Below are positions 8,897 through 53,467 of a stretch of DNA of 64,000 nucleotides, piece after piece. Numbering within the stretch: position 1 is the first letter of the stretch; the number at the start of each line of letters is the position of its first letter. The translations under genes and the position numbers were made by a program. The stretch is from a bacterium (GTDB lineage: Bacteria; Vulcanimicrobiota; Vulcanimicrobiia; Vulcanimicrobiales; Vulcanimicrobiaceae): contig JAJYFL010000004.1 of NCBI GenBank assembly GCA_021790935.1, forward strand, positions 91,142-155,141, given 5' to 3'. The notes beneath the pieces are model-generated. The model worked only from the letters and a program-made list of their open reading frames with translations, was not told where the DNA came from and searched no databases.

Positions 8897-9637
8897 CTAG
8901 CTGTTCGGGTCGAACGTCGCTCTAAAGAGATAGGTTCCCGTCGTTGGTTTACAGGCGACGATCTTGGGCGCGTAGGTCGATTGCCGCGCGGCCGAGAGCG
9001 CGGAATGATCGATGGCCATATTGTCGGAGCTCTGATCGATCTTCGCGTGGACGAGATTCCCAGACGGCCCGATGGTCACGGCGATGAGCACCGTAACGGT
9101 TCCGAGCCCCAGATTGCGAGCGCTATCCGGGTAGTTCGGGGCAACGGGCTGGACGACGGTTGCGTCCTGGTAGGGCACCTTGCAGGCCGGCGGCGTCGCG
9201 GTCGGCGGCGGCGCGGGGGGAGCCGGCGAGTTGGTCGCCTGTCCATTCGGGACGCCGTTCTCACTACCGTTCTTGGGCGGAACGTACGCCGGCTGGCTCG
9301 GCGAGTTCGCGCTGTTGCTCGTCGTCTTGGGGACGTTGAGCTTCAACTTCGGCGGCGCCTTCTGCTGTTGGTGCGGCGGCGGCGTTGCCTGCGGCGGCGG
9401 CGTCGGGGTCGGCGGTGGTGTCGGGGTCGGCGGCGGCGGCGTCGGCGCCTTCACCTGGATCTTCTTGGTGACCGAAACCTTTTCGACCGTCTGCTTCGAG
9501 TGCTGCTGCGTGAGCACCGGAAAGATCGGCGAGAGCACGAGGTGAATCACGATCGAGATCACGAAGGCCCAGCCCAGGAAGTTACCTACGCGCTCGCCCG
9601 TCGTGATGAAGGGCGAATCGTTTTTCTTATCTGCCAT
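8897..9637 (-). CDS. tonB: Energy transducer TonB (paralog 2, long Pro-rich linker)
   Basis: TM anchor, TPPPPTPTPPPTPTPPP linker and a TonB_C-like C-terminus. It lies adjacent to exbD and exbB. Confidence 0.7.
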   Translation of the reverse strand: MADKKNDSPFITTGERVGNFLGWAFVISIVIHLVLSPIFPVLTQQHSKQTVEKVSVTKKIQVKAPTPPPPTPTPPPTPTPPPQATPPPHQQQKAPPKLKLNVPKTTSNSANSPSQPAYVPPKNGSENGVPNGQATNSPAPPAPPPTATPPACKVPYQDATVVQPVAPNYPDSARNLGLGTVTVLIAVTIGPSGNLVHAKIDQSSDNMAIDHSALSAARQSTYAPKIVACKPTTGTYLFRATFDPNS

Positions 9638-11340: not shown

Positions 11341-12672
11341 TTACTTGAACGTGCTCTTAATAAAGTTTTCTATCTGCAAAGAAAGGCTTGTGTTCCCCGC
11401 CGCTTTAGCGAGCGTATCCGCCTTGGCGAGCGCGGCCATCGACTGCTTCTTTAGGTCGGGGTTCGACCTGCCGGCGGTCGCCCACTCGCCGGCGAGCGCG
11501 ACGCCCTCGGCAAAGTTGGCCAACGGATCGTCTGCCTTCGCAGCGAGGGCCTTATCGGCGTACCCCTTCATCTTCGTGTAGTTGGGCGTGGACCTGTTGC
11601 TCTCTTGAAACGCCGCTTGCGTATAGGCTGTGACCACTACCACGGGGTCACCTACCTCAGCCGCCTGTTCGAAGTACGCGATCGCGCCGTCGTGCTTCTT
11701 GGCCTTGCCCGCCGCGATCCCCAGCTCCAAGTAATGGTTGCCCAGAACGCGCGCGGCCGCGGTGCTCGAAGGGTCGAGCCGTTTCATCTCGTCGGTCGTG
11801 CCGGTAGCGTCGGCCATATCGCCGGCCTTGAGGTACGCCGCCAGCAGCGAGGTATCGATGATGACCTTGGTGCGCGTGCTCGTCTTGCTGTTCGCAAACG
11901 CGCTCGAGCGCGCTCGTTTCAGGTCGGCGACGGCGGCGGCCGCATCGCCGGCGTCGTACTCCGAAGTCCCCAGCGCATAATATGAATTGCCGCTCGGGTC
12001 GAGCGCCACGGCCTTCTTGCCCCAGGCAACCGCCTGGGCGGGGTCGTCGTTCTCGGTCTTAACGGCGGCCAGGGCGTACGCGTGGGCCGCCACCTGCCGG
12101 TATTCTTTCAGAAGCGTCGGGGATTTATCGAAGGCCGCCGCGGCGCCCGCATAGTCGTTCAGAAAAAAGTCCGCCGCGCCAAGCTCCTGTTGCGCGACCG
12201 CATCGCTCGGGTTGAGTGCGAGATACGCGGTCACCTTTGCCTGCGCTCCGGTGTAGTTGCCCGCGCGTATCATGCGCCCGATCTGAGCGGTGGGGCCCGA
12301 TTCACCGGCAATGACGCTGCTCGCTACCGCCTTACCGGTAAACTTGAGGGTGAAATCGTAGAACGCCGTCGTCGGTTTATTACCGCGCGTGCCGACGCGG
12401 TAGGCCGAATTCTTCGCGATGTCGATGGCGGCGGCATCGTCGGCGCGGTTGCTGGTGCGGAGGACGCGCATGACCTCGTGCGTGCCGTTGGCGTTGACCC
12501 GCACTTGGACGACGACGGTTCCGGTCCCGGCGATCGCCTTGGTCGTCGTTCCCTGCCGCAGCAACTTCGGCGGCGTATACTGATTGGAATATTGTGCCGA
12601 AGCCCTCGCGCCGAAGAGTGCGGCGACGGCGAGCGTACAGACGGCGGCGGCCAAGCGTTTGGTGCGGGTCAT
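11341..12672 (-). CDS. Secreted TonB_C-like domain plus TPR-repeat protein
   Basis: Signal peptide, an N-terminal TonB_C-like segment (TGTVVVQVRVNANGTHEV...AFYDFTLKF) and a long Ala-rich TPR-like region. Confidence 0.55.
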   Translation of the reverse strand: MTRTKRLAAAVCTLAVAALFGARASAQYSNQYTPPKLLRQGTTTKAIAGTGTVVVQVRVNANGTHEVMRVLRTSNRADDAAAIDIAKNSAYRVGTRGNKPTTAFYDFTLKFTGKAVASSVIAGESGPTAQIGRMIRAGNYTGAQAKVTAYLALNPSDAVAQQELGAADFFLNDYAGAAAAFDKSPTLLKEYRQVAAHAYALAAVKTENDDPAQAVAWGKKAVALDPSGNSYYALGTSEYDAGDAAAAVADLKRARSSAFANSKTSTRTKVIIDTSLLAAYLKAGDMADATGTTDEMKRLDPSSTAAARVLGNHYLELGIAAGKAKKHDGAIAYFEQAAEVGDPVVVVTAYTQAAFQESNRSTPNYTKMKGYADKALAAKADDPLANFAEGVALAGEWATAGRSNPDLKKQSMAALAKADTLAKAAGNTSLSLQIENFIKSTFK

Positions 12673-12731
12673 GCGGGTGTTGACTACCTCGTATTGTGGT
12701 GCGGTGCGATTCGTGGATTACCCAGCGGGAT

Positions 12732-12897
12732 TAGGAGGCTGTCGGAGTTGAGCCGTTTTCGGATTTGGTGCCGAATTTTGTTCGGAGACGAGGCGCGAAG
12801 AAGGAGCGAAGCCGTAGCTTCGTGACTGATGAGCAACGAAGTATTCGGACGAAAGGCGGCCCAAAGACGGAAACGGCTCAACTCCGACAGCCTCCTA
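12732..12897. repeat. MITE-like ~166-bp element, copy 2
   Basis: TAGGAGGCTGTCGGAGTTGAGCCG ... CGGCTCAACTCCGACAGCCTCCTA forms a perfect 24-bp terminal inverted repeat. Its terminal CTA (12895-12897) is the TAG stop of aroF on the minus strand. Confidence 0.85.
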
Positions 12898-13749
12898 GGC
12901 AACGAGACTGGCGGCTGGAAGGTTGCGCCCCACGGCGCGTGCGACGACGGGCAGACGCAGCATCAGCAGCGCAAACTCCTCGAACCCGAGCGATTGCTGC
13001 CCATCGGAGGCGGCGGCGGCCGGGTCGGGGTGGACTTCTACGAGCAGCCCGTCGGCCCCGGCCGCGACGGCCGCGAACGCCATCGGCTCGACCAGCCGGG
13101 CGATGCCCGTTCCGTGGGAGGGATCGACCACAACCGGGAGATGCGTCAGCTGGTGCAGCAGCGGAACGACGGCCAGGTCGAGCAGATTCCGGGTAGCAGC
13201 ATCGAAGGAACGCACCCCTCGCTCGCAGAGCACCACCTGGTCGTTCCCGGCGAGCAAGAGGTATTCGGCGGCCATCAACCACTCGTCGACCGTTGCCGAG
13301 AGCCCGCGTTTGAGAAGCACCGGTTTCCCGGCTTCGCCCACCTCACGCAGCAGGCTGAAGTTTTGCATGCTGCGCGCACCGATCTGCAGCATATCCGCAT
13401 GGGCGGCGACCAGTTCGACGTCGCGCGGGTCCAGGACTTCGGTCACGACGCCGAGCCCGTTGCGATCGGCCGCATCGCGCAGCAGGCGCAGACCCTCGGC
13501 ACCCAATCCCTGGAAGGTGTAGGGCGACGTTCTCGGTTTGAAGGCGCCGCCGCGCAGCACGTTGGCACCGGCAGACGCAACGGCCTTCGCCGTCGCCTCT
13601 ATTTGGTCGCGGCTCTCGACGCTGCACGGACCGGCGCAGATCGCGAGGACGTCGCCGCCGAAAGTCGCCCCGGAGGCCAAGCGCACGAGCGTACCGAGCG
13701 GCCGGGCATCGCGGTGGACGAGGGCATAGGAACCGGAGGGAGAGGTCAC
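12895..13749 (-). CDS. aroF: 3-deoxy-7-phosphoheptulonate (DAHP) synthase, class I-beta short form
   Basis: Strong match to the AroA(G)/KDOPS-like DAHPS core (CAGPCSVES, LRGGAFKPRTSPY, VVDPSH, MVEVHPDP). Confidence 0.85.
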   Translation of the reverse strand: MTSPSGSYALVHRDARPLGTLVRLASGATFGGDVLAICAGPCSVESRDQIEATAKAVASAGANVLRGGAFKPRTSPYTFQGLGAEGLRLLRDAADRNGLGVVTEVLDPRDVELVAAHADMLQIGARSMQNFSLLREVGEAGKPVLLKRGLSATVDEWLMAAEYLLLAGNDQVVLCERGVRSFDAATRNLLDLAVVPLLHQLTHLPVVVDPSHGTGIARLVEPMAFAAVAAGADGLLVEVHPDPAAAASDGQQSLGFEEFALLMLRLPVVARAVGRNLPAASLVA

Positions 13750-14486
13750 GCGAGCGCGCGCAGTGCCGCGAGCTCGCGCTCGCTCGGCGGGCGAGTGGCC
13801 CCTGGCGGCAGATCGCCTAAGCGAATCGGGCCGAAGCGCAGACGCACGAGGGCCTGGACGCTATGGCCGACGGCCTCGAACATGCGCCGCACTTGCCGGT
13901 TCTTGCCTTCGTGCACCGTGATGTCGACAACGGAGGTCTCACGCCGCACCGCGACCACGCGCAGCTGAGCGCCTGCGGCACGGAACTCTTCAAGATGCAC
14001 GCCGCTGCGCAATCGTTCTATCTCAGCGGGCAAAAGGCGTCCTTTGAGGAGCGCTCGATACGTTTTGTCGACCCCGTAGCGAGGGTGGGTCAGGCGGTTC
14101 GCGAGTTCGCCGTCGTTGGTGAGCAGCAGTACGCCCGAGGTATCGAAGTCCAGCCGTCCGACCGGCACGATGCGCGGCAGCCCCTTCGGGATGAGATCGG
14201 CGACGGTGCGCCGCCCTTGAGGATCGCGCATCGTCGTCATCACGCCGGCCGGTTTGTGCAAGACCAGATACGTCGTCTCCAGGTGTAAGACGACCGGCGC
14301 CCCGCTGACGTCGACGCGGTCGCCAACCGCAACGCTGGTGCCCATCTCGCGCACGACGCAGCCGTTCACGCGCACCTTCCCGCGAACGATGAGATCTTCG
14401 GCAGCGCGCCGCGAAGCGATCCCCGCATGCGCGAGATACTTCTGCAGCCGCATCGCGGTCGCGTCCGCCGCGTTCGCCTCTTTCAT
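13746..14486 (-). CDS. Pseudouridine synthase (RsuA/RluB family, S4 domain)
   Basis: The S4 region (LQKYLAHAGIASRR) is followed by a catalytic RLDFDTSGVLLLTNDGE motif. The start is placed at Met122, which overlaps the upstream stop (ATGA). Confidence 0.8.
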   Translation of the reverse strand: MKEANAADATAMRLQKYLAHAGIASRRAAEDLIVRGKVRVNGCVVREMGTSVAVGDRVDVSGAPVVLHLETTYLVLHKPAGVMTTMRDPQGRRTVADLIPKGLPRIVPVGRLDFDTSGVLLLTNDGELANRLTHPRYGVDKTYRALLKGRLLPAEIERLRSGVHLEEFRAAGAQLRVVAVRRETSVVDITVHEGKNRQVRRMFEAVGHSVQALVRLRFGPIRLGDLPPGATRPPSERELAALRALA

Positions 14487-15013
14487 CGGATCTTTGCGAA
14501 AACCATCAGATCGTAAATCTCGCCGTTCTTTACGACGGCCCTGCGCATCACGCCCTCCCGCTCGTAGCCCACCTTTTCGAGCACGCGCTGCGACGCCGTA
14601 TTGGGGTGCATGACGACCGACGAGATGCGCTCGAGCCCATGGGTTGCGAACGCGTAATCCGTCAGCGCGCGCAGGGCGGCAGAGGCGATGCCGCGCCCCC
14701 AATGCGGTTCCGCAATCCAATAGCCGACTTCGGCAGTTGTTCGTTCTTCGCGGTCGTGCAAAATGAAACCGGCACCCCCGATCGGTACGTCGTCGATCGT
14801 AACGGCAAAGTGAGTCTGCGGGTCGGAAGATTCGTTGATCTCGATCCACGCACGCGCGTCGTCGAGCGTATACGGATGCGGGAATCGATCTCGCAAGTAT
14901 CGCGCCACGTTGGGGTTATCCGCCGCCCGCACGAGCGCCGACTCGTCGCCCCTACGCCACGGCCGCAGCCGGCAGATCCCGCAATCCAAGACCATTACGA
15001 AACCTCCATCCAA
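14483..15013 (-). CDS. GNAT family N-acetyltransferase (RimJ/RimL-like)
   Basis: The 176-aa ORF has a GNAT fold signature (AEVGYWIAEPHWGRGIASAAL). Confidence 0.75.
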   Translation of the reverse strand: MDGGFVMVLDCGICRLRPWRRGDESALVRAADNPNVARYLRDRFPHPYTLDDARAWIEINESSDPQTHFAVTIDDVPIGGAGFILHDREERTTAEVGYWIAEPHWGRGIASAALRALTDYAFATHGLERISSVVMHPNTASQRVLEKVGYEREGVMRRAVVKNGEIYDLMVFAKIR

Positions 15014-15083
15014 CTCGTACCGAGCCGCCCGGCCCGCACGACGCGTCGCCGCGAAATGTGCGAACTACTGAAACTTCGCTCAA

Positions 15084-15115
15084 GTCTGAGGGCCACATGG
15101 ATGTGGCCCTCAGAC
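15084..15115 (-). terminator. Perfect 15-bp inverted repeat hairpin downstream of rho
   Basis: GTCTGAGGGCCACAT-GG-ATGTGGCCCTCAGAC lies between the rho stop and the next gene. No strong U-tract follows. Confidence 0.4.
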
Positions 15116-15162
15116 GTCTTCGCGGCGACGCGTCGTGCGGGCCGGGCGGCGACGTATGAGTA

Positions 15163-16455
15163 CTAGTACTTTCCGCTGCCTTCTTCGTACCCGCGCGAGA
15201 GCGAGAGCGCCTCTTTGGTAACCGTCTGGAGGAATTCGTCGTTGGTGCGAGTCTGCGCCATCTTGTCGAGAATGATCTCGGTGATGTCGCCCGTGTTGAG
15301 CACCGATGTCGCACGGCGGAGCATCCAGATCTTGCGCATCTCGTCGGGCGTGAGCAGCAGCTCTTCGTGGCGCGTTCCGGAACGCTTGATGTCGATGGCC
15401 GGAAAGACGCGCGACTCGGCCAATTTGCGCGTGAGGTTGAGCTCCATGTTTCCGGTGCCTTTGAACTCTTCGAAGATCACGTCGTCCATCTTCGACCCGG
15501 TCTCGACCAAGGCCGTAGCGATGATCGTGAGCGAGCCGCCCTCCTCGATCTTTCTCGCTGCGCCGAAGAAGCGTTTCGGCTTGTGCAGCGAGGCGGTGTC
15601 GAGGCCGCCCGAGAGGGTACGGCCCGAGGTCGGTATCACCTGGTTGTAGGCGCGCGCGAGGCGCGTGATCGAGTCGAGCAGGATCACCACGTCCTTACCG
15701 AGCTCCACCAGGCGTTTGGCGCGTTCCATCGCGAGTTCCGCCACGGCCGTGTGATTCTCAGGATGCTCGTCGAACGTCGAGGCGACGACCTCGCCGTCGA
15801 CCGTGCGCTGCATGTCGGTGACTTCTTCCGGGCGCTCGTCGACGAGCAATGCGATGATGTGGGCGTCGGGGTGGTTGATCGATATCGAGTTCGCGATGTT
15901 CTTCAGCAGCGTCGTCTTGCCGGCTTTCGGCGGAGAGACGATGAGCGCGCGCTGGCCCTTGCCGATCGGGCAGAACAGATCGATGACGCGCGTCGAGAGC
16001 TGCGTAGAGCGCACCTCGAGTTTGAAGCGCTCCTGCGGGTAGATCGGCGTGCCCTTTTCGAAGAGCGGTCTTCCCTTGATCGCTTCGGGATTCAAGCCGT
16101 TGACCGAGTCCACGCGAATCAGCCCGAAGTATTTCTCGCTCTCTTTGGGCCGGCGAACCTGGCCGTCGACGAGATCGCCACGCCGGAGTTCGAAGCGGCG
16201 GATCTGCGTCTGGCTCACGTAGATGTCGTCGGGGCCGATCACGTAGCCGTCTCGGCGCAGGAAGCCATAGCCTTCGGGCAGGACGTCGAGCACGCCGTTG
16301 GCGGTTTCGATACCCGAGCGCGCCGCCTGTATCTCGAGAATCTTCGCGATCAGCTCGTCCTTCTTGAGTTTGACGGGCGTCGCCACGTCGAACTCTTTGG
16401 AGATCTCGTTGAGCTCGGTTTTTGTCTTCTCGGCGAGCTGCTGGGTGGTAAGCAT
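15163..16455 (-). CDS. rho: Transcription termination factor Rho
   Basis: Rho N-terminal and RNA-binding domains and a RecA-like ATPase (Walker A PPKAGKTTLL) are present. The start is chosen at Met94 (MLTTQQLAEK). The track ORF extends in frame to 16734 through an Arg-rich segment. Confidence 0.9.
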   Translation of the reverse strand: MLTTQQLAEKTKTELNEISKEFDVATPVKLKKDELIAKILEIQAARSGIETANGVLDVLPEGYGFLRRDGYVIGPDDIYVSQTQIRRFELRRGDLVDGQVRRPKESEKYFGLIRVDSVNGLNPEAIKGRPLFEKGTPIYPQERFKLEVRSTQLSTRVIDLFCPIGKGQRALIVSPPKAGKTTLLKNIANSISINHPDAHIIALLVDERPEEVTDMQRTVDGEVVASTFDEHPENHTAVAELAMERAKRLVELGKDVVILLDSITRLARAYNQVIPTSGRTLSGGLDTASLHKPKRFFGAARKIEEGGSLTIIATALVETGSKMDDVIFEEFKGTGNMELNLTRKLAESRVFPAIDIKRSGTRHEELLLTPDEMRKIWMLRRATSVLNTGDITEIILDKMAQTRTNDEFLQTVTKEALSLSRGYEEGSGKY

Positions 16456-16758
16456 CGGCGGTCCCGATGCTTCCGCCTGTGGGAACTGCTCGTTATGCGG
16501 ATGCTGTCCGAAGGGTTGCCGGTGGCGTCGCGAACGCCGGCGCCGGCCGCCGTTCTGGGGCCGGTTGTTGTCGTTGGGGCGATTGTCGAGTTGCAGCGGA
16601 GTATCTCTCTCGTCAGAGTCGCGCACGTCTGGTAACCAAAACGCACCGGCGGGGATGCCTGTCGTTAAGCAATGACGCGGCGCTGGGGAACGTAAGTGTC
16701 GCGGAAGTCGATCGACTGCCTCGCGACGAGGCAACTATAGCATAGCGCTCACCGACTA

Positions 16759-17367
16759 TCAAGCCGTCGACAGCGCTTTGCGTCCGCTGACGAACGGATT
16801 CCCTACCTCGTAGAATCGCAGAGCCCGGTCCGCAGCCTTACTGATGCCGATCCGCACGCTCCGGCCGACGCTCGCGCGGCCCGCCGGTGCCGCGAGCCAA
16901 AGCCGGTCGCCCAGGAGCAGGTCGGAGCCGTCGAAGCTCGCATCGATCGCCAGCGCCTGGCAGAGTCGCCCGGGCCCGCGGCAGAGATCGCGCTCCGCGT
17001 CGATCCCGCGCCGGCGCCGCATGAGATCGTGCCCCACGATCGGTGCCAGCGCGCGTATCAGAATGGCCGCGCCGACGCACTCGGCTTCGCTCGTAACGTT
17101 CGCGCACGTCGCCACCCCATATATCTTATATATGTAAGCACGGTGGGGCGGGAGGAACATCGACGCGTTGCGCTTGGTCTTGCCGCAATAGGCGTGAGAG
17201 GCCGGATCGCCGATCCCGTACGCCTCGGTCTCGACGATTCGTCCTGCCGCACGGCCGTCCGAAGAGTCACGCACGAGCGCGCAGCCGATCAGCGCCTCCG
17301 CCAGAGCGGCCGTATCGACCGGCAGGCTCCCCGGTCGCAGCCGGCGCAGCGGTACATCGAGGTTCAC
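16759..17367 (-). CDS. mpg: DNA-3-methyladenine glycosylase (MPG/AAG family)
   Basis: GRIVETEAYGIGDPASHAYCGKTKRNASMF...YIYKIYG is the MPG signature. A GTG start overlaps the upstream stop (GTGA). Confidence 0.8.
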   Translation of the reverse strand: MNLDVPLRRLRPGSLPVDTAALAEALIGCALVRDSSDGRAAGRIVETEAYGIGDPASHAYCGKTKRNASMFLPPHRAYIYKIYGVATCANVTSEAECVGAAILIRALAPIVGHDLMRRRRGIDAERDLCRGPGRLCQALAIDASFDGSDLLLGDRLWLAAPAGRASVGRSVRIGISKAADRALRFYEVGNPFVSGRKALSTA

Positions 17368-17810
17368 GCCGCGACGTGCAGCGCCGCTTCCGCCTTTGCC
17401 CGAGCCGTCAGGTCTCTGGCGTCGTTGCCCGCATCGACCTCGATCGCTACCTCGCGCAGCTGGTTGAGCGCGCACCCGAGGCGAACGTAGGCCATCGAGA
17501 GCGCCTGCGGCACGGACCGGCGTTCGCGTAGATCCTCGACGACGCGCCCATCTTCCAGCGAGAGGCGGACTCGGTCGACGCCGCGTTCGTGGAGGCGCGC
17601 GGCGACGGCCGTCAGCGCCGCATACCCTATCTCACGCTCCAGGAGCGCCGGACATCGCTTCACCGGAAACGGGATCCGCAGCAGCCGCCCACGGCTATTG
17701 CCCTCAGGATGCGCGAGGGTCAAACGCACATACGCGACGCCGTGACCTTGCTCGTCTGCCGCGAAGCCGATCGTCGCCGCCAGCGGGGGAGTCGTCGTCT
17801 GTTTTCCCAT
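17364..17810 (-). CDS. Hypothetical protein (148 aa)
   Basis: Met228 of the long track ORF. The upstream part of that ORF overlaps the glycosyltransferase in another frame. Confidence 0.4.
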   Translation of the reverse strand: MGKQTTTPPLAATIGFAADEQGHGVAYVRLTLAHPEGNSRGRLLRIPFPVKRCPALLEREIGYAALTAVAARLHERGVDRVRLSLEDGRVVEDLRERRSVPQALSMAYVRLGCALNQLREVAIEVDAGNDARDLTARAKAEAALHVAA

Positions 17811-17851
17811 GGTAGCCACGTACCCATTGTATAATCGAACGTATGTTCGCG

Positions 17852-18997
17852 TCAACTCCCGGCCAGAACGGTCTTCTCCTCGGCGAGCAGCCTCGAGTAG
17901 AGCGCGACCACCCGAGCCGTCTGCTCGTCGATCGAAAAGCGCGCCGCCTGGCGGCGGGCACGCTCGGCGTAGCCGGTAGAGTCGGCCGGAAGACTCCGCA
18001 TCGCTTCGGCAAACGCGGCAGCTTCGGCAGGCACCACGCGCCCCGCGTCCCCCAAGACCTCTCGGTTCTGCCCGGCATCCGCAGCGATGACGAACGCCCC
18101 CGCAGCCATGGCCTCTGCCAAAACGAGCCCTTGCGTCTCGCTGACGCTGGGGAAAACGAAGACGTCGGCGCTCGCGTAGAGATCGGGCAGGCGATCGCGG
18201 TCGATCGCGCCCAGGAAGTGGGTGCGGTCTTGGATATGAAGGAGCCGGGCGCGTTCCTCGAACGCTTCGCGGTCCGGACCGTCGCCGGCAACGACCAAGT
18301 GCAGAGCTGGGTCGCCGCCGCATGCCAGCGCCTCGAGCAGCAAGGAGACGTTCTTTTCGCGCGCGAGCCGCGAGACGAACAGCGCCATGCGCTGGCCGGC
18401 CCCCACGCCGGCCTCGCGCCGCACCGATTCGCGGCGGGTTCCGGCGCCGAAACGGCGCAAGTCGATGCCGCTGTGCACGACCTCGACGCATGCGGTAACC
18501 CCGACTTCAAGCAGCCGGTCGCGCATGGCCGTCGTAGGAACGATGACGGCATCGGCGTGATTGGCGAAGTTGCGCGTGAGCCGGGTCGCCGCGCGGCGGG
18601 TCGCGTGCGGTTCGAACGGAATGTAGTGGGCGTACGCCTCGAGCCGCGTATGATACGTGTAGACGAGCGGAATCCCGAAGCGGCGCGCATAGTGAACGGC
18701 CATCCAGCCGGTGACGAACGGCGAATGTGCGTGTATCACGTCCAAGCGCTTGATGACGCGGTTGAGGTTGCGGCGGCTGACCAGGGGCAACGTCAGCCGG
18801 TAGGGCGTCGAAGTCGGCAGCGGCAGCGACGGCATGCGGAAGACGGGCCCGTCGGTTTCGCCGTAGCCGGGAGCCCGCGGCGCGAACAAATACACCTCGT
18901 GGCCGCGCCCCCGCAGCCCTTCGGCCAGGCCGTCGACCGAGGCCACGATCCCATTGACGATCGGGCGGTAACATTCCGTGAAAAAGCCGATCCGCAT
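17852..18997 (-). CDS. Glycosyltransferase family 4
   Basis: GT-B fold with a C-terminal EGFGLVLLEAMA-like motif (ETQGLVLAEAMAAGAFVIA). Confidence 0.85.
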   Translation of the reverse strand: MRIGFFTECYRPIVNGIVASVDGLAEGLRGRGHEVYLFAPRAPGYGETDGPVFRMPSLPLPTSTPYRLTLPLVSRRNLNRVIKRLDVIHAHSPFVTGWMAVHYARRFGIPLVYTYHTRLEAYAHYIPFEPHATRRAATRLTRNFANHADAVIVPTTAMRDRLLEVGVTACVEVVHSGIDLRRFGAGTRRESVRREAGVGAGQRMALFVSRLAREKNVSLLLEALACGGDPALHLVVAGDGPDREAFEERARLLHIQDRTHFLGAIDRDRLPDLYASADVFVFPSVSETQGLVLAEAMAAGAFVIAADAGQNREVLGDAGRVVPAEAAAFAEAMRSLPADSTGYAERARRQAARFSIDEQTARVVALYSRLLAEEKTVLAGS

Positions 18998-19109
18998 ATC
19001 TTCTCCTGCGAAGGTTCACCGGGCTTCGGAACGCGCCTGCGCTGGCGCCCTCATATGACTTTTGGCATATTCCCATCTTCCGCGGATCGTGGTATAGTGC
19101 CCGGGTTAG

Positions 19110-19298
19110 TCAATGGCCGGGCGATCGAGGTCGCCTGGCAGTAACCACCTCGACTGCGCGAAGGACTCTCCGGAGCCGGCGCCGTCCAGGGTTCACGGCA
19201 CCAACGCTCGCTGGTTGAAAGTGCTTCCACAGGCTCGAGACGAGCCTGGGCTAAGCCGTTGCCACCTCGTTGTGGTGCCCCTCAGGAAAGGAGTCGCG
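19110..19298 (+). promoter_or_regulatory. Long structured 5' leader; candidate riboswitch or cis-regulatory RNA (possibly c-di-AMP/ydaO class)
   Basis: A ~190-nt noncoding region lies upstream of the G5/3D gene. It contains alternative pairings: UCGAGGU can pair with either ACCACCUCGA or CCACCUCG, and there is a CUCCGGAG palindrome. A GGAAAGGAG SD precedes the TTG start. The class assignment is not verified. Confidence 0.3.
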
Positions 19299-20168
19299 TT
19301 GATCGGACGCGCCCCATCGAAGGCGACCCGCGTGCTCGCCCTCAGCGTTCTCTCCGTCGGGCTGGCAGCCACGAGTTTCGCCGCCCAAGCGTCCGCCCGC
19401 GCGGCCGTTATGGCCGTGAGCGGCCCGGCAGTGCCGGTTACCGTCGTGACCGCTACCAAATCGATACGCGTCACGAGCTCTGCGCCCGACGTCGGAGCCC
19501 TGCTCGAAGAGGAAGGCATCCGGCTCGGCCGGTACGACCAGGTACGGCCGTCGCTCGCCGATCCCGTCGTTGCAAACGGCGTCGTGCGAGTCATCCGCAT
19601 AACGAAATGGGTCGCGATTCGTCGGCGCACCATCGCTCCGCCCGTTATCCGGCGCATCGATTTCGCGCTGCCGCCCGGCAAGACGAAGATCCTCGCACGC
19701 GGAGTCTCGGGCGAGCGCCAAGTCGAGATACGCTATAGCGAACGCGACTTCGAGAAGATTCACGCGCGCGTCGTAACGCAGCGCGTGATTCGGCAGCCGA
19801 AGGCACGGATCGTCGACGAGGGCGTCGGAGAGTATGCGGCGCTCGAATATTTCGCCAAGCGCGGTATGCAGAAGATGTCCTACGTCGCCGGCAGTGCGAT
19901 GAGGATGGTCGCGACGGCGTACACCGCACATTGTTACGGCTGCAGCGGCATCACCGCGAGCGGTTATCCGGCCGGCCACGGGATCGTCGCCGTCGATCCG
20001 CGCGTGATTCCGCTGGGCACGAGGCTCTACATCCCGGGTTACGGCCCCGCCATCGCCGGCGACACCGGCGGAGCGATTCTCGGCAATCGCATCGATCTTG
20101 GATTCAATTCATTGCACGACGCAGTTGAATTCGGCCGCCGCGTCATCACGGTGTACCGCCTCAAATAG
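19299..20168 (+). CDS. G5/3D domain cell-wall-associated protein (YabE/Rpf-like)
   Basis: C-terminal 3D domain (YTAHCYGCSGITASG...VDPRVIPLGTRLYIPGYG). The TTG start is preceded by GGAAAGGAG, and an N-terminal signal/TM segment is present. Confidence 0.75.
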   Translation: MIGRAPSKATRVLALSVLSVGLAATSFAAQASARAAVMAVSGPAVPVTVVTATKSIRVTSSAPDVGALLEEEGIRLGRYDQVRPSLADPVVANGVVRVIRITKWVAIRRRTIAPPVIRRIDFALPPGKTKILARGVSGERQVEIRYSERDFEKIHARVVTQRVIRQPKARIVDEGVGEYAALEYFAKRGMQKMSYVAGSAMRMVATAYTAHCYGCSGITASGYPAGHGIVAVDPRVIPLGTRLYIPGYGPAIAGDTGGAILGNRIDLGFNSLHDAVEFGRRVITVYRLK

Positions 20169-20236
20169 AACACCCGCGCGCGCTGCTCGACCGGTACGGC
20201 TACAAACCCAAGAAACGCCTCGGGCAAAACTTCCTC

Positions 20237-21001
20237 GTGGATGCCGGCTCGGCGGCGCGCATCGCGCGGCTGGCCGTGCCGCACGCGGATGCGGACGTGC
20301 CGGCGGTGCGCGTATTGGAGATAGGTGCGGGAACGGGGCAGCTCACCCGCGCGCTCCTCGCGCTCGGAGCCCCAACGTTCGCCATCGAGATCGACGCCGA
20401 GATGGTGCGCGTGTTGCGCGACGACCCACAGCTGCGCGCAGCGGCGCTCCTGCAGGCGGACGCAATGGCGTTCGACTACGCGGCCTTTGCGGCCAGCGGC
20501 CCGTGGATCGCCGCCGGCAACCTCCCCTACAACGTCGCAACGCCGCTGATCGTGCGGCTGGTCGAGATGCGCGAGGGACCGCAACTATTGGTCGTCACGA
20601 TTCAAAAAGACGTCGCAGACCGCCTGGCCGCGCGGCCCGGTACGAAGGCGTACGGCAGTTTAAGCGTTGCAGTGCAGTATGCGATGGAGGTGGAGCGTGC
20701 ATTCTCGCTCGGCCCTGGCGCATTCTACCCGCGGCCGAAGGTGGATTCTACCGTCGTGCTCCTGCGCCGCCGCGATCGCCCGGCCGCAGCGGTGAGAGAC
20801 GAAGCGTGGTTCCGGCAGGTCGTCCGCGCCGCCTTCGCGTACCGCCGCAAGACGCTGGCCAACAGCCTTTCGCTGGCTCTGACCGTGCCGCGGGCGGCGG
20901 TTGCAGGCGCATTGCAGTCGCTCGACATCGATCCGGAGATTCGTGGAGAACAGCTCGACATCGCAGATCTCGCCCGATTGGCCGACGCGTTGGGAACCTG
21001 A
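20237..21001 (+). CDS. rsmA: 16S rRNA (adenine1518/1519-N6)-dimethyltransferase RsmA/KsgA
   Basis: SAM motif VLEIGAGTGQLT and the NLPYN catalytic motif are present. The conserved N-terminal KRLGQNFL motif is encoded in frame immediately upstream of the annotated GTG, with no canonical start before it (see findings). Confidence 0.85.
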   Translation: MDAGSAARIARLAVPHADADVPAVRVLEIGAGTGQLTRALLALGAPTFAIEIDAEMVRVLRDDPQLRAAALLQADAMAFDYAAFAASGPWIAAGNLPYNVATPLIVRLVEMREGPQLLVVTIQKDVADRLAARPGTKAYGSLSVAVQYAMEVERAFSLGPGAFYPRPKVDSTVVLLRRRDRPAAAVRDEAWFRQVVRAAFAYRRKTLANSLSLALTVPRAAVAGALQSLDIDPEIRGEQLDIADLARLADALGT

Positions 21002-23797: not shown

Positions 23798-25132
23798 TCA
23801 GATGCCGTGCGGTACGGCCGCGCGCGGCAGGATCACTGCCACCGTCGGCGATCCGAGGTAGCGATGTGCGACGCGCTGCAGATCGGCGGGCGTTACCACT
23901 TCGATGGCGGCGACGGCGCGATTGAGGTAATCGGGCGAACCGTGCTGCAACGCAAAGACGCCGGCCAACCACGCGCGATCCTCCAGCGTGACCGCGCCGT
24001 TGATGAAGTCACCCTCGGCCATCGACTTTAGGTCTGCGATGCGCCCATGCAACTTCGTATGCCCGAGCAGATCCACGACGGAGAGCGCGGTCGAGAACGT
24101 ACGCGAAGGGTGCCCGAGCCCGCCGTCGACGTAGACGATAACGTTGGCCGGCCGCGCGTCGAAGTTGTACAACGCTCCCACACCGCGCATCGCAAACGGC
24201 CGCGTCGCTATCGACGGCAGTTCCGCAACGTCGGAGAGCGTATGCCCGATGAAAGCCGTCAGGACGAGCATCGCACCGAAGTCCGGGCTGTCGGCCTGCG
24301 GAGCGCGGTACTGCGCGACCAACCACGGTACGGAGATGTTGCGCTCCGCGCGCAGCTCGCGCGTGTGCCCGGCCAGCGGCAACGTCGAAACCCGAACCGG
24401 TCGCGAGGTTCCGGGCGGTAGCGCGTCGATCACGCGCTCGAGATCGGCGAGCGCGAGCGTGCTCGTATCCCCAACCGCACTTGCGACCGCGCCGTTTCGC
24501 CGGTAATACGCGGCGTAAAACTTTCGCGCGTCGGCGGAGGTCAACCGCGCGACCGTCGCCGGCATACCGAACTCCGGCAGCCCCGCATTGGACCGGCTGT
24601 AAAAGCTGCGATCGAGCATCTCGATGCCGGCGGTCAGCGGAACGCGTTCCAGCGCTGCGAATCTGCGCTCGAGCGAGGCGCGCGCGGAGGCTAGCATAGA
24701 CTCGCCAAACTGCGGCTTCGACAATGCCGAACGAAACATCGGTAAGAGCGTGGTAGCGTAGACTTGCTTACGGCCCTCGAGGTAGAAGTGCACGTCGTGG
24801 CCGCTGACGCCGTACGCGATCGAACCGCCCGCGTCCGCTACGGCAGCGCGTAGCGGTATCGGCGCGGCGCCATCCAGCGCGACGGGAGTGCGCAGGATGG
24901 CCTCGGCCACGAGCGCCGCCACGCCGCTCTCCCGCTGCGTTTGGCGGTCCAGCCCGGCGGAGATGAAGAACTCGGTCCCCACGAGGCCGCTCGTCGGGTC
25001 GTCCTGTTCGATGATGGTCGCCGCGCCGTACGAAAAGACGCTCGGCGCCGGCACTAAAGGAGCTGCGGCCACGCGCCCACCGCACGTGAAAGCGGTCATC
25101 GCCAGCAGCGCCGCCGCAAGAATCTGTTTCAT
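23798..25132 (-). CDS. M16 (pitrilysin) family peptidase-like protein, secreted, no HxxEH motif
   Basis: Signal peptide and M16-like two-domain architecture. The inverted zinc motif is absent. Confidence 0.6.
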   Translation of the reverse strand: MKQILAAALLAMTAFTCGGRVAAAPLVPAPSVFSYGAATIIEQDDPTSGLVGTEFFISAGLDRQTQRESGVAALVAEAILRTPVALDGAAPIPLRAAVADAGGSIAYGVSGHDVHFYLEGRKQVYATTLLPMFRSALSKPQFGESMLASARASLERRFAALERVPLTAGIEMLDRSFYSRSNAGLPEFGMPATVARLTSADARKFYAAYYRRNGAVASAVGDTSTLALADLERVIDALPPGTSRPVRVSTLPLAGHTRELRAERNISVPWLVAQYRAPQADSPDFGAMLVLTAFIGHTLSDVAELPSIATRPFAMRGVGALYNFDARPANVIVYVDGGLGHPSRTFSTALSVVDLLGHTKLHGRIADLKSMAEGDFINGAVTLEDRAWLAGVFALQHGSPDYLNRAVAAIEVVTPADLQRVAHRYLGSPTVAVILPRAAVPHGI

Positions 25133-47084: not shown

Positions 47085-47175
47085 TGGAGGAGAGAGTGGG
47101 ATTCGAACCCACGGAACGCTCGTCGCGTTCAGCGGTTTTCAAGACCGCCGCCTTAAACCACTCGGCCATCTCTCC
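47085..47175 (-). tRNA. tRNA-Ser (anticodon UGA) with encoded CCA
   Basis: Reverse complement folds as a tRNA. Acceptor stem GGAGAGA/UCUCUCC, anticodon loop CUUGAAA, a long variable arm and a GTGGGTTCGAATCCCAC T-arm. Confidence 0.85.
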
Positions 47176-49731: not shown

Positions 49732-51063
49732 ATGATCGTCGAGCAATTTGCGTCCGCAGACCCGCATGCTCGCATCGCGGCGGCCGTGCTTCGCCTGCTC
49801 TTCGGAGACGCGTACGCCAGAAACTTCGCCATCCGCCTGTGGGACGGCAGCCTCATCCCCGCAAGCGAGCAGAAGCGCTTTACGCTACTGGTAAACTCGC
49901 CGGGCGCGCTGCGCACCGCGTTCCGTCCGCCGGTCGATCTCAACGCCGGCCGGGCGTTCGCCGCCGGCGCGATCGATTGCGACGGCCAGGTGGAGTATGC
50001 CGTCGACGAGATGTACGGTGCGATGCACCGTATGCCGCGTTCGGCACTTCCCCGCATGCTGACGCTCTTGCTGCGCCTGCCGAAAGAGCCGCGTCCGGAT
50101 TTGCGCGAGGCGACTCTGCGGGGAAAGTTGCACTCCGTGGAACGCGACCGCGCGGCGATCGGCTTCCACTACGATCAGCCCGTTCCATTTTACGCGTCGT
50201 TTCTCGACCGCGAGCTGGTCTATTCGTGCGCGTATTTCGACGACGGCGTACAGACGCTGGATGACGCGCAGATTGCGAAGCTCGACTATACCTTGCGCAA
50301 ACTGGGCGTCCGGCCGGGGGAACGCGTGCTCGACATCGGCTGCGGCTGGGGAGCGCTCGTCATCCGGGCAGCGCAGCGTTTCGGCGCCCGCGCGCTTGGC
50401 GTCACGCTCAGCCCCCGGCAATACGAAGAAGCCAACCGGCGCATCGCCGCGGCGGGGCTCGGCGATCGCGCGCGCGTAGAGTTGCGCGACTACCGCGAAC
50501 TCAACGGGGCCGAGTTCGACAAGATTGCGAGCGTTGGCATGTTCGAGCACGTCGGGCGCTCGAAGCTGCCGGAGTATTTTCGCGTCGCATACTCGTTGCT
50601 GCGGCCGGGCGGGCTCTTTCTCAATCACGGCATCGCAAATCAAGATCCTACGCTCTCCGACGGCAAGGCAAGCGGTTTCATGAATCGCTTCATCTTCCCC
50701 GACGGTGAACTCGTGCTCGTCTCCGAAGCGCTGCAAATCGCGGAGCGATGCGGATTCGAGGTGCGAGACGTCGAGAACTTGCGCGAGCACTACATGCGGA
50801 CGCTGCGTGCGTGGGTTGCCAATATCGAACGCAACCGCGCGGATGCGATCGCGGCGGCGGGGGAGCAATCCTACCGTACGTGGCGGCTCTATATGGCGGG
50901 AAGCGCCCAGGGCTTCCGTATCGGGAGAATCGGCCTCTTCCAATCGCTGCTCGCAAGAGCGAACGGCGACGGCAGCGTCGGCATCTCGCCGACGCGGCGC
51001 GATCTCTACATAGAGGGGGCGGCCGTAGCCGCCCCTTGCGATCCGCCGTCGAGAGACGGTTAA
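49732..51063 (+). CDS. cfa: Cyclopropane-fatty-acyl-phospholipid synthase family methyltransferase
   Basis: SAM motif VLDIGCGWG and the CFA synthase family core (YSCAYF, ASVGMFEHVG). Confidence 0.85.
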   Translation: MIVEQFASADPHARIAAAVLRLLFGDAYARNFAIRLWDGSLIPASEQKRFTLLVNSPGALRTAFRPPVDLNAGRAFAAGAIDCDGQVEYAVDEMYGAMHRMPRSALPRMLTLLLRLPKEPRPDLREATLRGKLHSVERDRAAIGFHYDQPVPFYASFLDRELVYSCAYFDDGVQTLDDAQIAKLDYTLRKLGVRPGERVLDIGCGWGALVIRAAQRFGARALGVTLSPRQYEEANRRIAAAGLGDRARVELRDYRELNGAEFDKIASVGMFEHVGRSKLPEYFRVAYSLLRPGGLFLNHGIANQDPTLSDGKASGFMNRFIFPDGELVLVSEALQIAERCGFEVRDVENLREHYMRTLRAWVANIERNRADAIAAAGEQSYRTWRLYMAGSAQGFRIGRIGLFQSLLARANGDGSVGISPTRRDLYIEGAAVAAPCDPPSRDG

Positions 51064-51563
51064 CCGAGTTTGCGCAACTCGTCGAAGATCTGTTCTTCGT
51101 CTGGCTGCTCGCCGATATCGTGCACGTCGACGTAACGGACGATTCCGTTCTTGTCGACGATGACGATCGTGCGCTCCGCCATCCCTTCGGCGCGGAGTAC
51201 GCCATATTTTTCGGCGACCGCGCCGTGCGGATAGAAGTCGCTAAGCAGCGGATACGTTATGCCGCCAAGCGTCTTTGCCCACGCGGCGTTCACGTGCGTG
51301 CTGTCGATCGAGATGCCCACAACTTGAGCATCGTAACCTTCGAAACGATCGAGATTCTCTTCGTACGAAGGCATTTGACTGGTTCAAACCGGCGTAAAGG
51401 CAAACGGATAGAACGCCATCACGACGTTCTTCTTTCCCTTGTTATCGGATAGCTTGAACGTGCCGCCGGTGTGCGACTTGAGTTCGAAATCCGGCGCGAC
51501 GTCGCCGGCCTTCAGCGTCTTGGTGCTGGAGGCCATGGATTTGCGTCCCTTGGTAACTGCCAT
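51060..51563 (-). CDS. BCP/PrxQ-type peroxiredoxin with an in-frame UGA at the peroxidatic Cys position (candidate selenoprotein; alternatively a nonsense pseudogene)
   Basis: Hand translation gives [59 protein letters not shown]-[TGA 51384-51386][35 protein letters not shown]... The TGA falls where FTPxC(T)xQ carries the catalytic Cys. A GGGGGTGA SD precedes the ATG at 51563. A hairpin with a GUAC loop lies ~16-30 nt downstream of the UGA. Confidence 0.6.
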
Positions 51564-51629
51564 ACTTGATTCTCACCCCCTCTCTCTGGAACGATGGCGC
51601 ACCCGCTCGGGCGCGCCCTCCCATGATTC

Positions 51630-52295
51630 TCAGATCTCGCGAATGGTTCCCGGTTCGACCGGATGGAGTAGCGAGTCGAGGGCGGCCAACAGCGTGGCCC
51701 GCTGATCTGCGACCTCTCCGGCCGCGCCGATCGGGGTCCCGATGGCATGGCGCACGGGATGGACCGCGCGCGGCGGACGCGCGGCCGCCGATTGGGCGGG
51801 CTCGACGGTGATCAGCATCGTCGGGATACCGGCGGCTTCGATGGCTCGTTGAACGTGCACGACCGTGCGGTGGCAGAGCGGTCAACCGCCGGTCAAGATC
51901 ACCAGGTCGGTCTGGCTGCGTTCGATCTTGCGCGCGATCTCGGGAGCCGTTTCGTCGAGCACTTGCTTGAGCCGAAGCGTGTAGCCCATCATGCCGAAGA
52001 ACTCGTGATTCAAACCTTTAATGGTACCGTCGGCAACGAACTCGCGCAACCGGTCGATGGGAAAGACGCAGTTGATATCGCGGTCGGCTTGCTCGTGGTC
52101 GTAATGCGCGTGCGTAACCATCAGCTCGCCGGTCGGCGTATCCGAGGCGATGACGCGATACGAGCCGTCGCCATCGACATCGTAGGGCTCTTGCGAGCGC
52201 AAATGGACTCCTGCGGTGCTCACGAGCGCCACCGTCGTCTCGGTCAAGTCGCGTGCGAACGGCGTATAGGGGATCGCGCGGCGTGAAAGTTCCAT
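51630..52295 (-). CDS. Selenoprotein B family protein (PrdB/GrdB-like) with an in-frame UGA in a UxxC motif (candidate selenoprotein)
   Basis: Two track ORFs (51882-52406 and 51630-51860) are joined in frame across TGA 51882-51884. The junction reads ...TDLVILTGG-U-PLCHRTVVHVQRAIEAAGIPTMLITVEP... This region, together with VALVSTAGVHL and DINCVFPIDRL...FFGMMG, resembles D-proline reductase PrdB / glycine reductase protein B. A GCAC-GGUC-GUGC hairpin places GU about 22-23 nt after the UGA. Start at Met38 (MELSRRAIPY), which follows GGAGGA. Confidence 0.6.
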
Positions 52296-52338
52296 TCCTC
52301 CGGGTTCGGCTCCGGCGGTGCGCCGGGCCTGCGCAAGA

Positions 52339-52373
52339 AAATAATTGACATTTATCAATATTTTCGCTACCAT
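52339..52373 (+). promoter_or_regulatory. Near-consensus sigma70 promoter (TTGACA-N17-TACCAT) inside an AT-rich imperfect palindrome
   Basis: AAAATAATTGACATTTATCAATATTTT is an AT island in a GC-rich genome. It is palindromic (AAAATA-ATTGA...TCAAT-ATTTT). It lies in the divergent region between the PrdB-like gene and the secreted protein gene. Confidence 0.5.
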
Positions 52374-52420
52374 GGGGCGTAAAATTCGGAATGGCGCCGC
52401 CCGCACGATTGGAGATCCCG

Positions 52421-53467
52421 ATGAGCCTTCGCAACCTCTTTGCGCTCACCGCCGTAGCGCTCTGTCTTGCCGCAACTCCGAAAGCGAAGCCGTTGACCTT
52501 CGCCGAGACGATGCGAACCGCGATTGCCGCGACGCCCTCGGATTTCGCCTCGCTTCGGGGCGCGGCCGAGCCGGCCACGCAATTCGAGCGGGAGTACGCC
52601 ACGCGGCCCGGCCCGCTCTCGTTCGTGACCATCGCCGATGAGTTCGCAACGCTATCGGAGCGCGAGCACTGGCTTCTGAGCTTCGATTGGAAGTTCGACC
52701 CTGGAACGACGACGGCAACGACTGTCGCCCGGACCGTCGCCGAGATGACTCCGCTCGTGAAGGGCTATCGTCTGACGCGATCGACGACGAAAGCGGGCAT
52801 CGTCCGCTTGTTATGGAGCGGACCCGCCGGACGCTCCATCGCGATTCACACCTACACCGTCTCGGCCACCAAGAGCGAGCCCGCTCATAACGGCGTTTCG
52901 GTCGCCGTAATGCAGACGCTGCCCAAGAACCTTCACGTTGCCGCGTACGTTCACGGAATCACCGCGGCTGCGCGCGCGACGGTCGTTCGCGCCGTGGGAC
53001 AGTCGGTCACCCTTGCAACGAGCGATGCGTCGACGAACTTCGCCGCCCTGCGCGGCGATGAACTCCCGCTCGGCGCCATCGATGCAATGATGGCGTCGGC
53101 TTTCGGCGATACGTTTCATCGGTATAAGACCAACGTCGCGTTCGACCGCGCGCTCTATACCTGCCAAATCGAATCCATCCACTTTCCCGCGAAGGAAAAG
53201 AATTTCAGCTCGAAGGACATCTTTGGATGCAAGACGCCGGTCTTCGGCGGCGCAAACGCCGCGTTGACTGCGTCCTTACGAGCGTCGATCCAAAACGCTC
53301 TCGGCTCCGCGTTTTCGTTCACGCCCGCGGATCCAAAGGACGCGTTCTCGGAGGATACGTGGAGCCGGACCGCCGACCAAACGGAAGTTACATTCGGCGC
53401 GAGTGATTCGCACGGTGGCGTCTATTACGAGATCAACGTCTACCACTACTTCCCAAACGGGACCTAA
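52421..53467 (+). CDS. Secreted hypothetical protein (signal peptide)
   Basis: Starts MSLRNLFALTAVALCLAATPKA, preceded by GGAG 6 nt upstream. No family assigned. Confidence 0.5.
   Translation: MSLRNLFALTAVALCLAATPKAKPLTFAETMRTAIAATPSDFASLRGAAEPATQFEREYATRPGPLSFVTIADEFATLSEREHWLLSFDWKFDPGTTTATTVARTVAEMTPLVKGYRLTRSTTKAGIVRLLWSGPAGRSIAIHTYTVSATKSEPAHNGVSVAVMQTLPKNLHVAAYVHGITAAARATVVRAVGQSVTLATSDASTNFAALRGDELPLGAIDAMMASAFGDTFHRYKTNVAFDRALYTCQIESIHFPAKEKNFSSKDIFGCKTPVFGGANAALTASLRASIQNALGSAFSFTPADPKDAFSEDTWSRTADQTEVTFGASDSHGGVYYEINVYHYFPNGT

Follow-up and report, generated by a model that had tools for sequence, protein, structure and literature searches.

A stretch of 64,000 nucleotides from a member of the Vulcanimicrobiaceae (contig JAJYFL010000004.1; the whole stretch is referred to below as the window) contains a peroxiredoxin gene with an in-frame TGA at the position where enzymes of this family have their peroxidatic cysteine. 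Comparison with orthologues makes it very likely that a single functional gene at this locus encodes a selenocysteine (Sec)-containing peroxiredoxin of the 1-Cys (AhpE-like) type, in which the apparent stop codon almost certainly encodes Sec at the catalytic site. The original prediction, made from the letters of the window, had read the gene as a selenoprotein. That reading is upheld by the conservation of the TGA across species, by cysteine in the few orthologues that lack it, by downstream RNA structure confined to the Sec forms, by a second, adjacent gene with its own in-frame TGA, and by a tRNA-Sec gene beside one orthologue.

The gene occupies positions 51060..51563 of the minus strand; all window features given below are on that strand unless stated otherwise. 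Its translation from the ATG (51563..51561) extends over 167 codons, including U60, to a TAA (51062..51060), giving MAVTKGRK...DELRKLG* with only one internal stop, the TGA at 51384..51386. In the list of open reading frames (ORFs) the locus appears as two entries, one of 59 amino acids (aa; 51563..51384) and one of 104 aa beginning MPSYEEN (51374..51060). These share one frame, and tblastn alignments at 80 species loci run through the TGA from residue 1 to residue 167, which bears out the earlier statements that the frame stays open beyond the UGA and that the two ORFs form one gene. The N-terminus MAVTKGR is kept in orthologues, and a putative Shine–Dalgarno-like sequence, GGGGGUGA (51573..51580), can be read 9 nucleotides (nt) 5′ of the ATG. 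No intrinsic-terminator-like site was found in 50800..52700.

Protein searches were run with U written as C. The whole AhpC-TSA domain of Pfam is matched (PF00578, E = 1.6e-36; residues 20-145 against model positions 2-124 of 124), with the UGA lying in a P-x3-T-x2-[U/C] motif accompanied by the active-site Arg. The stop codon aligns with the peroxidatic cysteine (Cys45) of Mycobacterium tuberculosis AhpE (FFPLAFTGICQGE; AhpE context FFPLAFTGIC) and with the cysteine of full-length homologues (AFYPFAFSPTCASQMP), as had been predicted for this codon. The active-site Pro, Thr and Arg likewise align with M. tuberculosis AhpE (AER versus ANR), and the LLSDFxPHG motif is present. The best PDB matches, which extend along the whole chain, were 1XVW, 1XXU and 4X0X (M. 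tuberculosis Rv2238c; E ~7e-30, ~107 bits). All of the top seven are Mycobacterium AhpE-type chains at 104-108 bits, six of them M. tuberculosis Rv2238c/MT2298, and the next-best chains, which are BCP-like and Prx1-type, score at most 78 bits (BCP-like E 7e-21). No NCBIfam model reaches its own cut-off for this protein: the PrxU equivalog NF040737 gave 68.9 bits against a cut-off of 270, BCP (PRK09437) 61.7 against 140, and PrxQ (NF053650) 38 against 260. Some of the homologues bear the JGI name 'mycoredoxin-dependent peroxiredoxin'. The locus had originally been described as an intact BCP/PrxQ-type peroxiredoxin. The intact domain stands, but BCP/PrxQ, although of the same superfamily and of similar size, is a far weaker match than AhpE, and from these comparisons the label is replaced by AhpE (1-Cys type) as the closest subfamily. 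The protein has no Cys residue at all, and so no resolving cysteine. If the TGA is read as Sec, the product is predicted to be a '1-Sec' enzyme that needs an external reductant, because a peroxiredoxin without cysteine requires an external recycling partner.

The catalytic codon was compared among orthologues by a species scan (one genome per GTDB species), which returned 80 loci, alongside a protein search covering 5.8 billion proteins. The species-level orthologues come from at least five phyla; 76 have TGA at the peroxidatic position and four have TGC or TGT. With the window and six near-identical contigs added, the alignment column contains 83 TGA, three TGC and one TGT (n = 87). TGA carriers belong to Vulcanimicrobiota/Eremiobacterota, Chloroflexota (Anaerolineae), Acidobacteriota (Terriglobia), Dormibacterota and Krumholzibacteriia, and include the cultured Bacillota species Tumebacillus avium AR23208. 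The fully sequenced genome of the latter (NZ_CP021434.1; L074, 8608-9921 and 10157-10480) has the TGA form, and in GenBank its orthologue is represented by a 107-aa C-terminal fragment alone, named 'alkyl hydroperoxide reductase' (ARU62987.1).

Both flanks of the codon are conserved at the protein level: mean ungapped identity to the window protein is 58% in the 40 residues preceding U and 70% in the 60 that follow. Close matches in the protein search were of two types. The first are full-length proteins of 166-169 aa with 56-77% identity and Cys at the TGA position (AFYPFAFSPTC...); the second are dozens of proteins of 103/104 aa with 80-98% identity, all beginning MPSYEEN, and these are orthologues that gene callers split at this codon. 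In the public assembly collection (ENA, Logan, NCBI), exact copies of the 104-aa fragment occur in 55 indexed blocks.

Two consecutive hairpins follow the UGA, both of them part of the minimum-free-energy structure computed for this part of the window. Hairpin 1, which we propose as a spacer helix, lies at 51336..51372 (+15..+51 from the U of the UGA) and is formed by GCCUUCG...CGAAGGU with inner stems and the apical loop AAU. Hairpin 2, the proposed binding element for SelB, lies at 51312..51332 (+55..+75) and has the form GAUGCUCA-AGUUG-UGGGCAUC, with its loop at 51324..51320. The conservation of both was assessed in a gap-free alignment of 91 nt from the UGA comprising 76 distinct Sec-type sequences. 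In hairpin 2, seven core pairs form in nearly all of these sequences. Its pair 57-73 is UA in 53, GC in 10 and CG in nine, and pair 58-72 is GC in 54, AU in 18 and GU in four, while G64 (51323) and U65 (51322) of the loop are invariant. The covariation score was reached by none of 500 shuffles, and sliding the register drops pairing to ~40%. When the Sec sequences are folded singly, +12..+54 gives a single long hairpin 1 in all 76, with the apex at +28..+39 and a mean z of -3.5. This hairpin is ~40 nt long and begins 12-15 nt after the UGA, and its stems vary by clade (CCUUCG/CGAAGG, CCCGUC/GACGGG, CCGG/CCGG, GCUUUCGA/UCGAGAGC and GUACGAACGCGA/UCGCUUUCGUGC). The column-wise consensus from RNAalifold recovered hairpin 2 only, since hairpin 1 changes its register by 1-3 nt from clade to clade and column-wise folding misses it.

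Because the hairpins lie in coding sequence, we used a synonymous-codon null, in which codons were permuted among positions of the same amino acid within the gene, leaving the protein and the codon usage unchanged. In the Sec forms (n = 77), hairpin 1 folds at -18.8 kcal/mol against -10.3 for the shuffled sequences (z = -3.08; 96% below -1.64), and hairpin 2 at -11.9 against -5.7 kcal/mol (z = -2.43; 91% below -1.64). The Cys forms (n = 8) gave -12.4 against -12.2 kcal/mol for hairpin 1 (z = -0.07) and -6.0 against -4.5 kcal/mol for hairpin 2 (z = -0.58). The Sec forms alone show clear RNA-level selection on the two hairpins. The closest Cys forms, L089 (TGT; 3001-3504) and L090 (TGC; 2113-2616), have a perfect hairpin 2 (AUGCCCAAGUUGUGGGCAU) and a weakened hairpin 1, and their hairpin 2 looks like a relic selenocysteine insertion sequence (SECIS) left by a recent Sec-to-Cys replacement. 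These two loci have a different gene context, Thy1 followed by the peroxiredoxin and, in L089, by an M48 peptidase gene.

The original prediction had pointed to another stem-loop, CUUC-GUAC-GAAG (51370..51359), as a possible bacterial SECIS. It is present in the letters of the window; it is absent from the minimum-free-energy fold and is not conserved, and a SECIS role for it was rejected. It cannot form in most clades (the corresponding columns of L018 read CCCGGCCUCGAG), and the conserved hairpin 1 uses the same 5′ bases. A further small hairpin may enclose the UGA itself, pairing 51384-51389 with 51373-51377 (GUUUG...CAAAU in the window, GUCUG...CAGAU in other clades); covariation of the third positions of the Val and Gln codons in this GUYUG/CARAU element is only partial. 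An Rfam scan of 50900..52500 at E <= 1 gave no match.

A second selenoprotein gene appears to lie immediately upstream. The PrdB-like gene (51630..52295) has 221 codons and a terminal TGA (51632..51630), and ends 66 nt before the peroxiredoxin start. Its own in-frame UGA (51882..51884) stands in the context ...DLVILTGG*PLCHRTVV..., so that LTGG-U-PLC-H forms a U-x-x-C motif, which is the known Sec position of the PrdB/GrdB family (PMC13188914). The protein matches Pfam GRDB (1.9e-11) and TIGR04483 PrdB (7.5e-54; aligned over 20-218 of 238), the latter at 182.7 bits, below the cut-off of 300. Downstream of this UGA is a hairpin of the canonical SECIS type, GCAC-GGUC-GUGC (51857..51868), whose GGUC loop at +21..+24 fits the rules of the bacterial SECIS (bSECIS) model (PMC13188914). 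The codon is TGA in 26 of 27 PrdB-like sequences and TGT (Cys) in L064; the SECIS core ACGGUCGU is identical in all 26 Sec-type orthologues, across phyla, and is missing from the Cys form.

The PrdB-like gene adjoins the Sec-peroxiredoxin, co-oriented, in 24 of the 80 species loci. It is upstream in 12 (the window's clade, other Vulcanimicrobiota and Dormibacterota) and downstream in 12 (Terriglobia and other Acidobacteriota, one Chloroflexota and Krumholzibacteriia), and the pair occurs in none of the eight Cys-form loci. The retention of the pair in either order across phyla suggests that the two proteins may be functionally linked. Two adjacent genes, each with a TGA at a known Sec position, are also strong independent evidence for Sec decoding in this lineage. 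No Gly_reductase/PrdA-type Pfam match was found among the called genes within 10 kb of the PrdB-like gene, and because no PrdA-type gene is nearby the protein is unlikely to be a proline reductase. The gene pair is flanked by ORFs for an unknown 358-aa protein and for a cyclopropane-fatty-acyl-phospholipid synthase (CMAS) methyltransferase; the latter gene (49732..51063, plus strand) is convergent with the peroxiredoxin gene, and the two overlap by 4 nt at their stop codons (51060-51063).

We also scanned the window for other in-frame TGAs flanked on either side by coding-like sequence composition. Just two in-frame TGAs of the window coincide with known redox-active (Sec/Cys) positions. The strongest other selenoprotein candidate, a TGA at 23800..23798 between open stretches of 496 and 362 codons, turned out to separate two genes of the same frame, one for an M16 peptidase and, after it, one for a family-4 glycosyltransferase.

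One component of the Sec machinery was found beside an orthologue. In L049 (Candidatus Aquilonibacter, Eremiobacterota), a tRNA-Sec gene (9527-9620 of that locus, minus strand) lies ~115 nt downstream of the Sec-peroxiredoxin, and it has the hallmarks of such a tRNA, i.e. the anticodon UCA, an 8-bp acceptor stem and the discriminator base G73. The sole tRNA gene of the window is a tRNA-Ser with the anticodon UGA (47085-47175). SelA, SelB and SelD of E. coli served as tblastn queries for the window and 86 loci; there was no SelA or SelD match, and an apparent SelB match in L049 was discarded, its translation being a BipA/TypA-type GTPase.

Several observations weigh against the reading of the codon as Sec or against the signal proposed for it. 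None of selA, selB, selD and tRNA-Sec was found within the window, and we infer Sec decoding in its own genome from the comparisons above. The shuffle and Mann-Whitney comparisons take no account of phylogeny; the Cys-form controls number only eight, and two of these, L089 and L090, keep hairpin 2. Against dinucleotide shuffles, the 101-nt sequence of the window taken alone gave a non-significant z of -1.19. The bSECIS model expects a stem of 4 bp or more, capped by an apical loop of 3-9 nt with a G within its first two positions, and a distance of 16-37 nt from the UGA to the loop (PMC13188914). Hairpin 2 agrees with its stem and loop rules, having a stem of 7-8 bp and the loops AGUUG, GGUCG, GUU or GUC, but breaks the spacing rule, its loop starting at +63 and thus 59 nt beyond the UGA. 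Hairpin 1 has its loop at an allowed distance (+28..+39) but lacks a conserved loop G (AAU in the window). Some bacterial SECIS candidates are known to fall outside the model (PMC13188914).

Among the alternatives to Sec, the one that survives best is recoding through the SelB pathway with cysteine as the inserted amino acid, carried by a selC*-type tRNA(Cys) with a UCA anticodon. Such tRNAs, together with a second copy of selB, have been described in Deltaproteobacteria, Firmicutes, Nitrospirae and Thermodesulfobacteria (PMC5389517), and the inserted amino acid is not decidable from sequence alone. These lineages exclude the phyla seen here, however, and the only tRNA beside an orthologue, that of L049, has the 8-bp acceptor stem and G73 of a tRNA-Sec. 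TGC would moreover serve for cysteine, and it would then be difficult to see why 76 species keep a UGA together with a SECIS. We consider this alternative very improbable.

The original prediction had also named a TGC-to-TGA nonsense mutation as the alternative. A pseudogene made in this way (from TGC or TGT), or a sequencing or assembly error, would agree with the division of the locus by gene callers into 59-aa and 104-aa ORFs in every public assembly. The TGA, however, recurs in 83 of the 87 sequences and in several phyla, the identical fragment appears in 55 blocks of the assembly collection, both halves of the protein are conserved, and the RNA structure downstream is selected only where the TGA is present. 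The codon is not a nonsense mutation because it is conserved, because the protein is conserved on both sides, and because TGA is a normal stop in the window, and this alternative is effectively refuted already, its remaining probability being negligible. A genome-wide reassignment of TGA to Trp or Gly (genetic code 4 or 25) is no more credible. One homologue, the peroxiredoxin-glutaredoxin fusion P0046 from a JGI metagenome, has W in place of Sec in its database entry, probably through a gene caller that read TGA as Trp. In the window, however, TGA terminates 18 of the 36 long coding-like ORFs, the PrdB-like gene included, in-frame TGAs at redox-active positions are limited to the two noted above, and the homologues carry Cys rather than Trp or Gly. 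It is just as improbable that the two ORFs are expressed as separate polypeptides that reassemble: an ATG (MPSYEEN) does follow three codons after the TGA in the window, but it is replaced by Ile or Leu codons (ATA, ATC, TTG, CTG) in many orthologues, several of which have ATA or ATC, it has no Shine–Dalgarno sequence, the catalytic residue itself would be lost, and the Cys forms are single chains. On the sequence comparisons, nonsense mutation, base-calling error, split gene and reassigned code can be regarded as excluded for practical purposes.

For the Sec reading, we propose that, with the ribosome at the UGA (51386..51384), RNA structure in the next 75 nt would recruit SelB and Sec-tRNA(Sec), so that Sec would be inserted and no termination would occur. 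The recoding signal would be bipartite, with hairpin 1 after the UGA and, directly behind it, hairpin 2 with an fdhF-like G-U in its SelB-binding loop. Comparison with the neighbouring gene is consistent with this arrangement, as the G-U is at +22/+23 in the PrdB-like gene and at +64/+65 in the peroxiredoxin gene, and the difference of 42 nt equals the length of hairpin 1. We lean towards a model, with moderate confidence, in which hairpin 2 would be the SelB-binding element and hairpin 1 a compact spacer helix that starts near the point where, with the UGA in the A site, the mRNA emerges from the ribosome. Once hairpin 1 is folded, the SelB site would be separated from the UGA by ~12 unpaired nt, as in fdhF. 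In an alternative model, hairpin 1 itself would act as the SECIS and hairpin 2 would be accessory. We found no description of a two-hairpin recoding arrangement in the literature that could be read.

The model with hairpin 2 as the SelB site can be set beside the SECIS of E. coli fdhF. Both signals lie in the coding region just after the UGA, and hairpin 2 resembles the fdhF element in its stem of 7-8 bp and its loop of 3-5 nt of the form N-G-[G/U]-N-N; the GGUC loop of the PrdB-like gene at +21..+24 is similar as well. Unlike fdhF and the bSECIS model, hairpin 2 has its G-U loop ~59 nt from the UGA, with a conserved hairpin of ~40 nt between, and subtracting this hairpin would restore the canonical distance (64 minus 42 = 22).

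In the proposed catalytic cycle, the selenolate in the P-x3-T-x2-U...R active site probably reduces peroxides and becomes selenenic acid, which the U-x-x-C centre of the PrdB-like protein would then reduce in the cysteine-free peroxiredoxin. Gene context makes the PrdB-like U-x-x-C selenoprotein the most plausible recycling partner in the window's genome. Some loci without the peroxiredoxin/PrdB-like pair show a dithiol partner instead. Twelve Anaerolineae loci (L061, L062, L065, L067, L072, L076, L078-L081, L083 and L085) encode a fusion protein in which a glutaredoxin domain with the motif C-P-x-C follows the peroxiredoxin domain at the C-terminus, ~300 nt further on, and in T. avium the upstream gene encodes a glutaredoxin fused to a thioredoxin-reductase-like flavoprotein. 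To our knowledge, members of the PrdB-like family have otherwise been described only as catalytic subunits of amino-acid reductases. Taken together, a two-selenoprotein peroxide-reducing module, in which the PrdB-like protein would recycle a cysteine-free 1-Sec AhpE-type peroxiredoxin, combined with an undescribed class of SECIS, in which a G-U-loop hairpin ~60 nt from the UGA would be put in register by a spacer hairpin of ~40 nt, is a tentative proposal that we hold to be rather doubtful as a whole.

Sec-peroxiredoxins with a T-x-x-U motif are an established family and among the most abundant selenoprotein families in marine metagenomes (PMC13188914, PMC2398784, PMC1794560), the founding member being PrxU of Eubacterium acidaminophilum (Sohling et al. 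2001, as cited in PMC13188914). The window protein shares with the selenoprotein peroxiredoxin family (PF00578, PrxU) the AhpC/TSA fold, Sec in place of the peroxidatic Cys in P-x3-T-x2-U, a SECIS within the gene and abundant Cys homologues. It differs from PrxU in that it is not an equivalog (NF040737), belongs to an AhpE-like branch, has no Cys and is followed by another RNA architecture. With M. tuberculosis AhpE (1-Cys, mycoredoxin-reduced) it shares the active-site layout, the LLSDFxPHG motif and the lack of a resolving Cys, and relatives are fused to or located beside glutaredoxin-like proteins; unlike AhpE, it has Sec for Cys, an extra N-terminal extension of ~15 residues and, in its clade, a PrdB-like selenoprotein as neighbour instead of mycoredoxin.

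PrdB-type selenoproteins outside clostridia have already been catalogued (PMC2398784, PMC1794560). The neighbouring protein shares the length, fold signature and U-x-x-C Sec motif of PrdB (a subunit of D-proline reductase) and GrdB (glycine reductase) from Clostridium sticklandii and its relatives, but falls below the equivalog cut-off, has no PrdA/Gly_reductase-type gene within 10 kb, and has a peroxiredoxin as its conserved partner. The selenoprotein operons listed in a 2026 review are grdA-grdB, prdB-prdC, frhA-frhD-hdrA, Prx with SelW-like, Prx-like with AhpD-like, SAO and Tso, with no Prx/PrdB pair among them (PMC13188914). The Sec-peroxiredoxin itself is of a known selenoprotein kind, its AhpE-like branch being missed by current curated models, while the two-hairpin signal and the partnership with the PrdB-like gene, both well supported as patterns in the sequences, are the parts that might be new.

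NCBI assembly GCA_027401515.1 (L004, ~12200-20315) diverges from the ENA contigs (L001-L003, L005, L006) ~2 kb downstream of the peroxiredoxin, where the genes for an aldehyde dehydrogenase, a helicase and LytR are replaced by genes for SLT, a TonB-dependent receptor, LigB, a phage integrase, a Tn7 TnsA-like protein and a Mu-type transposase. The difference suggests a mobile-element insertion or rearrangement in that strain.

Members of the Sec-peroxiredoxin clade are frequent in the soil phyla Eremiobacterota, Acidobacteriota and Chloroflexota, but public databases list them as fragments of 59 aa and ~104 aa. Because the genes are recorded in this form and no NCBIfam model reaches its cut-off, the selenoproteomes and the antioxidant capacity of these lineages are underestimated. 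The hairpins also violate the spacing rule on which bacterial SECIS predictors rely; if hairpin 2 is indeed the SelB site, the rule would need an exception for structured spacers, and rule-based tools will miss such genes. Finally, a gene pair conserved in either order offers a testable proposal for the function of the 'orphan' PrdB-like selenoproteins outside the Stickland-fermenting clostridia.

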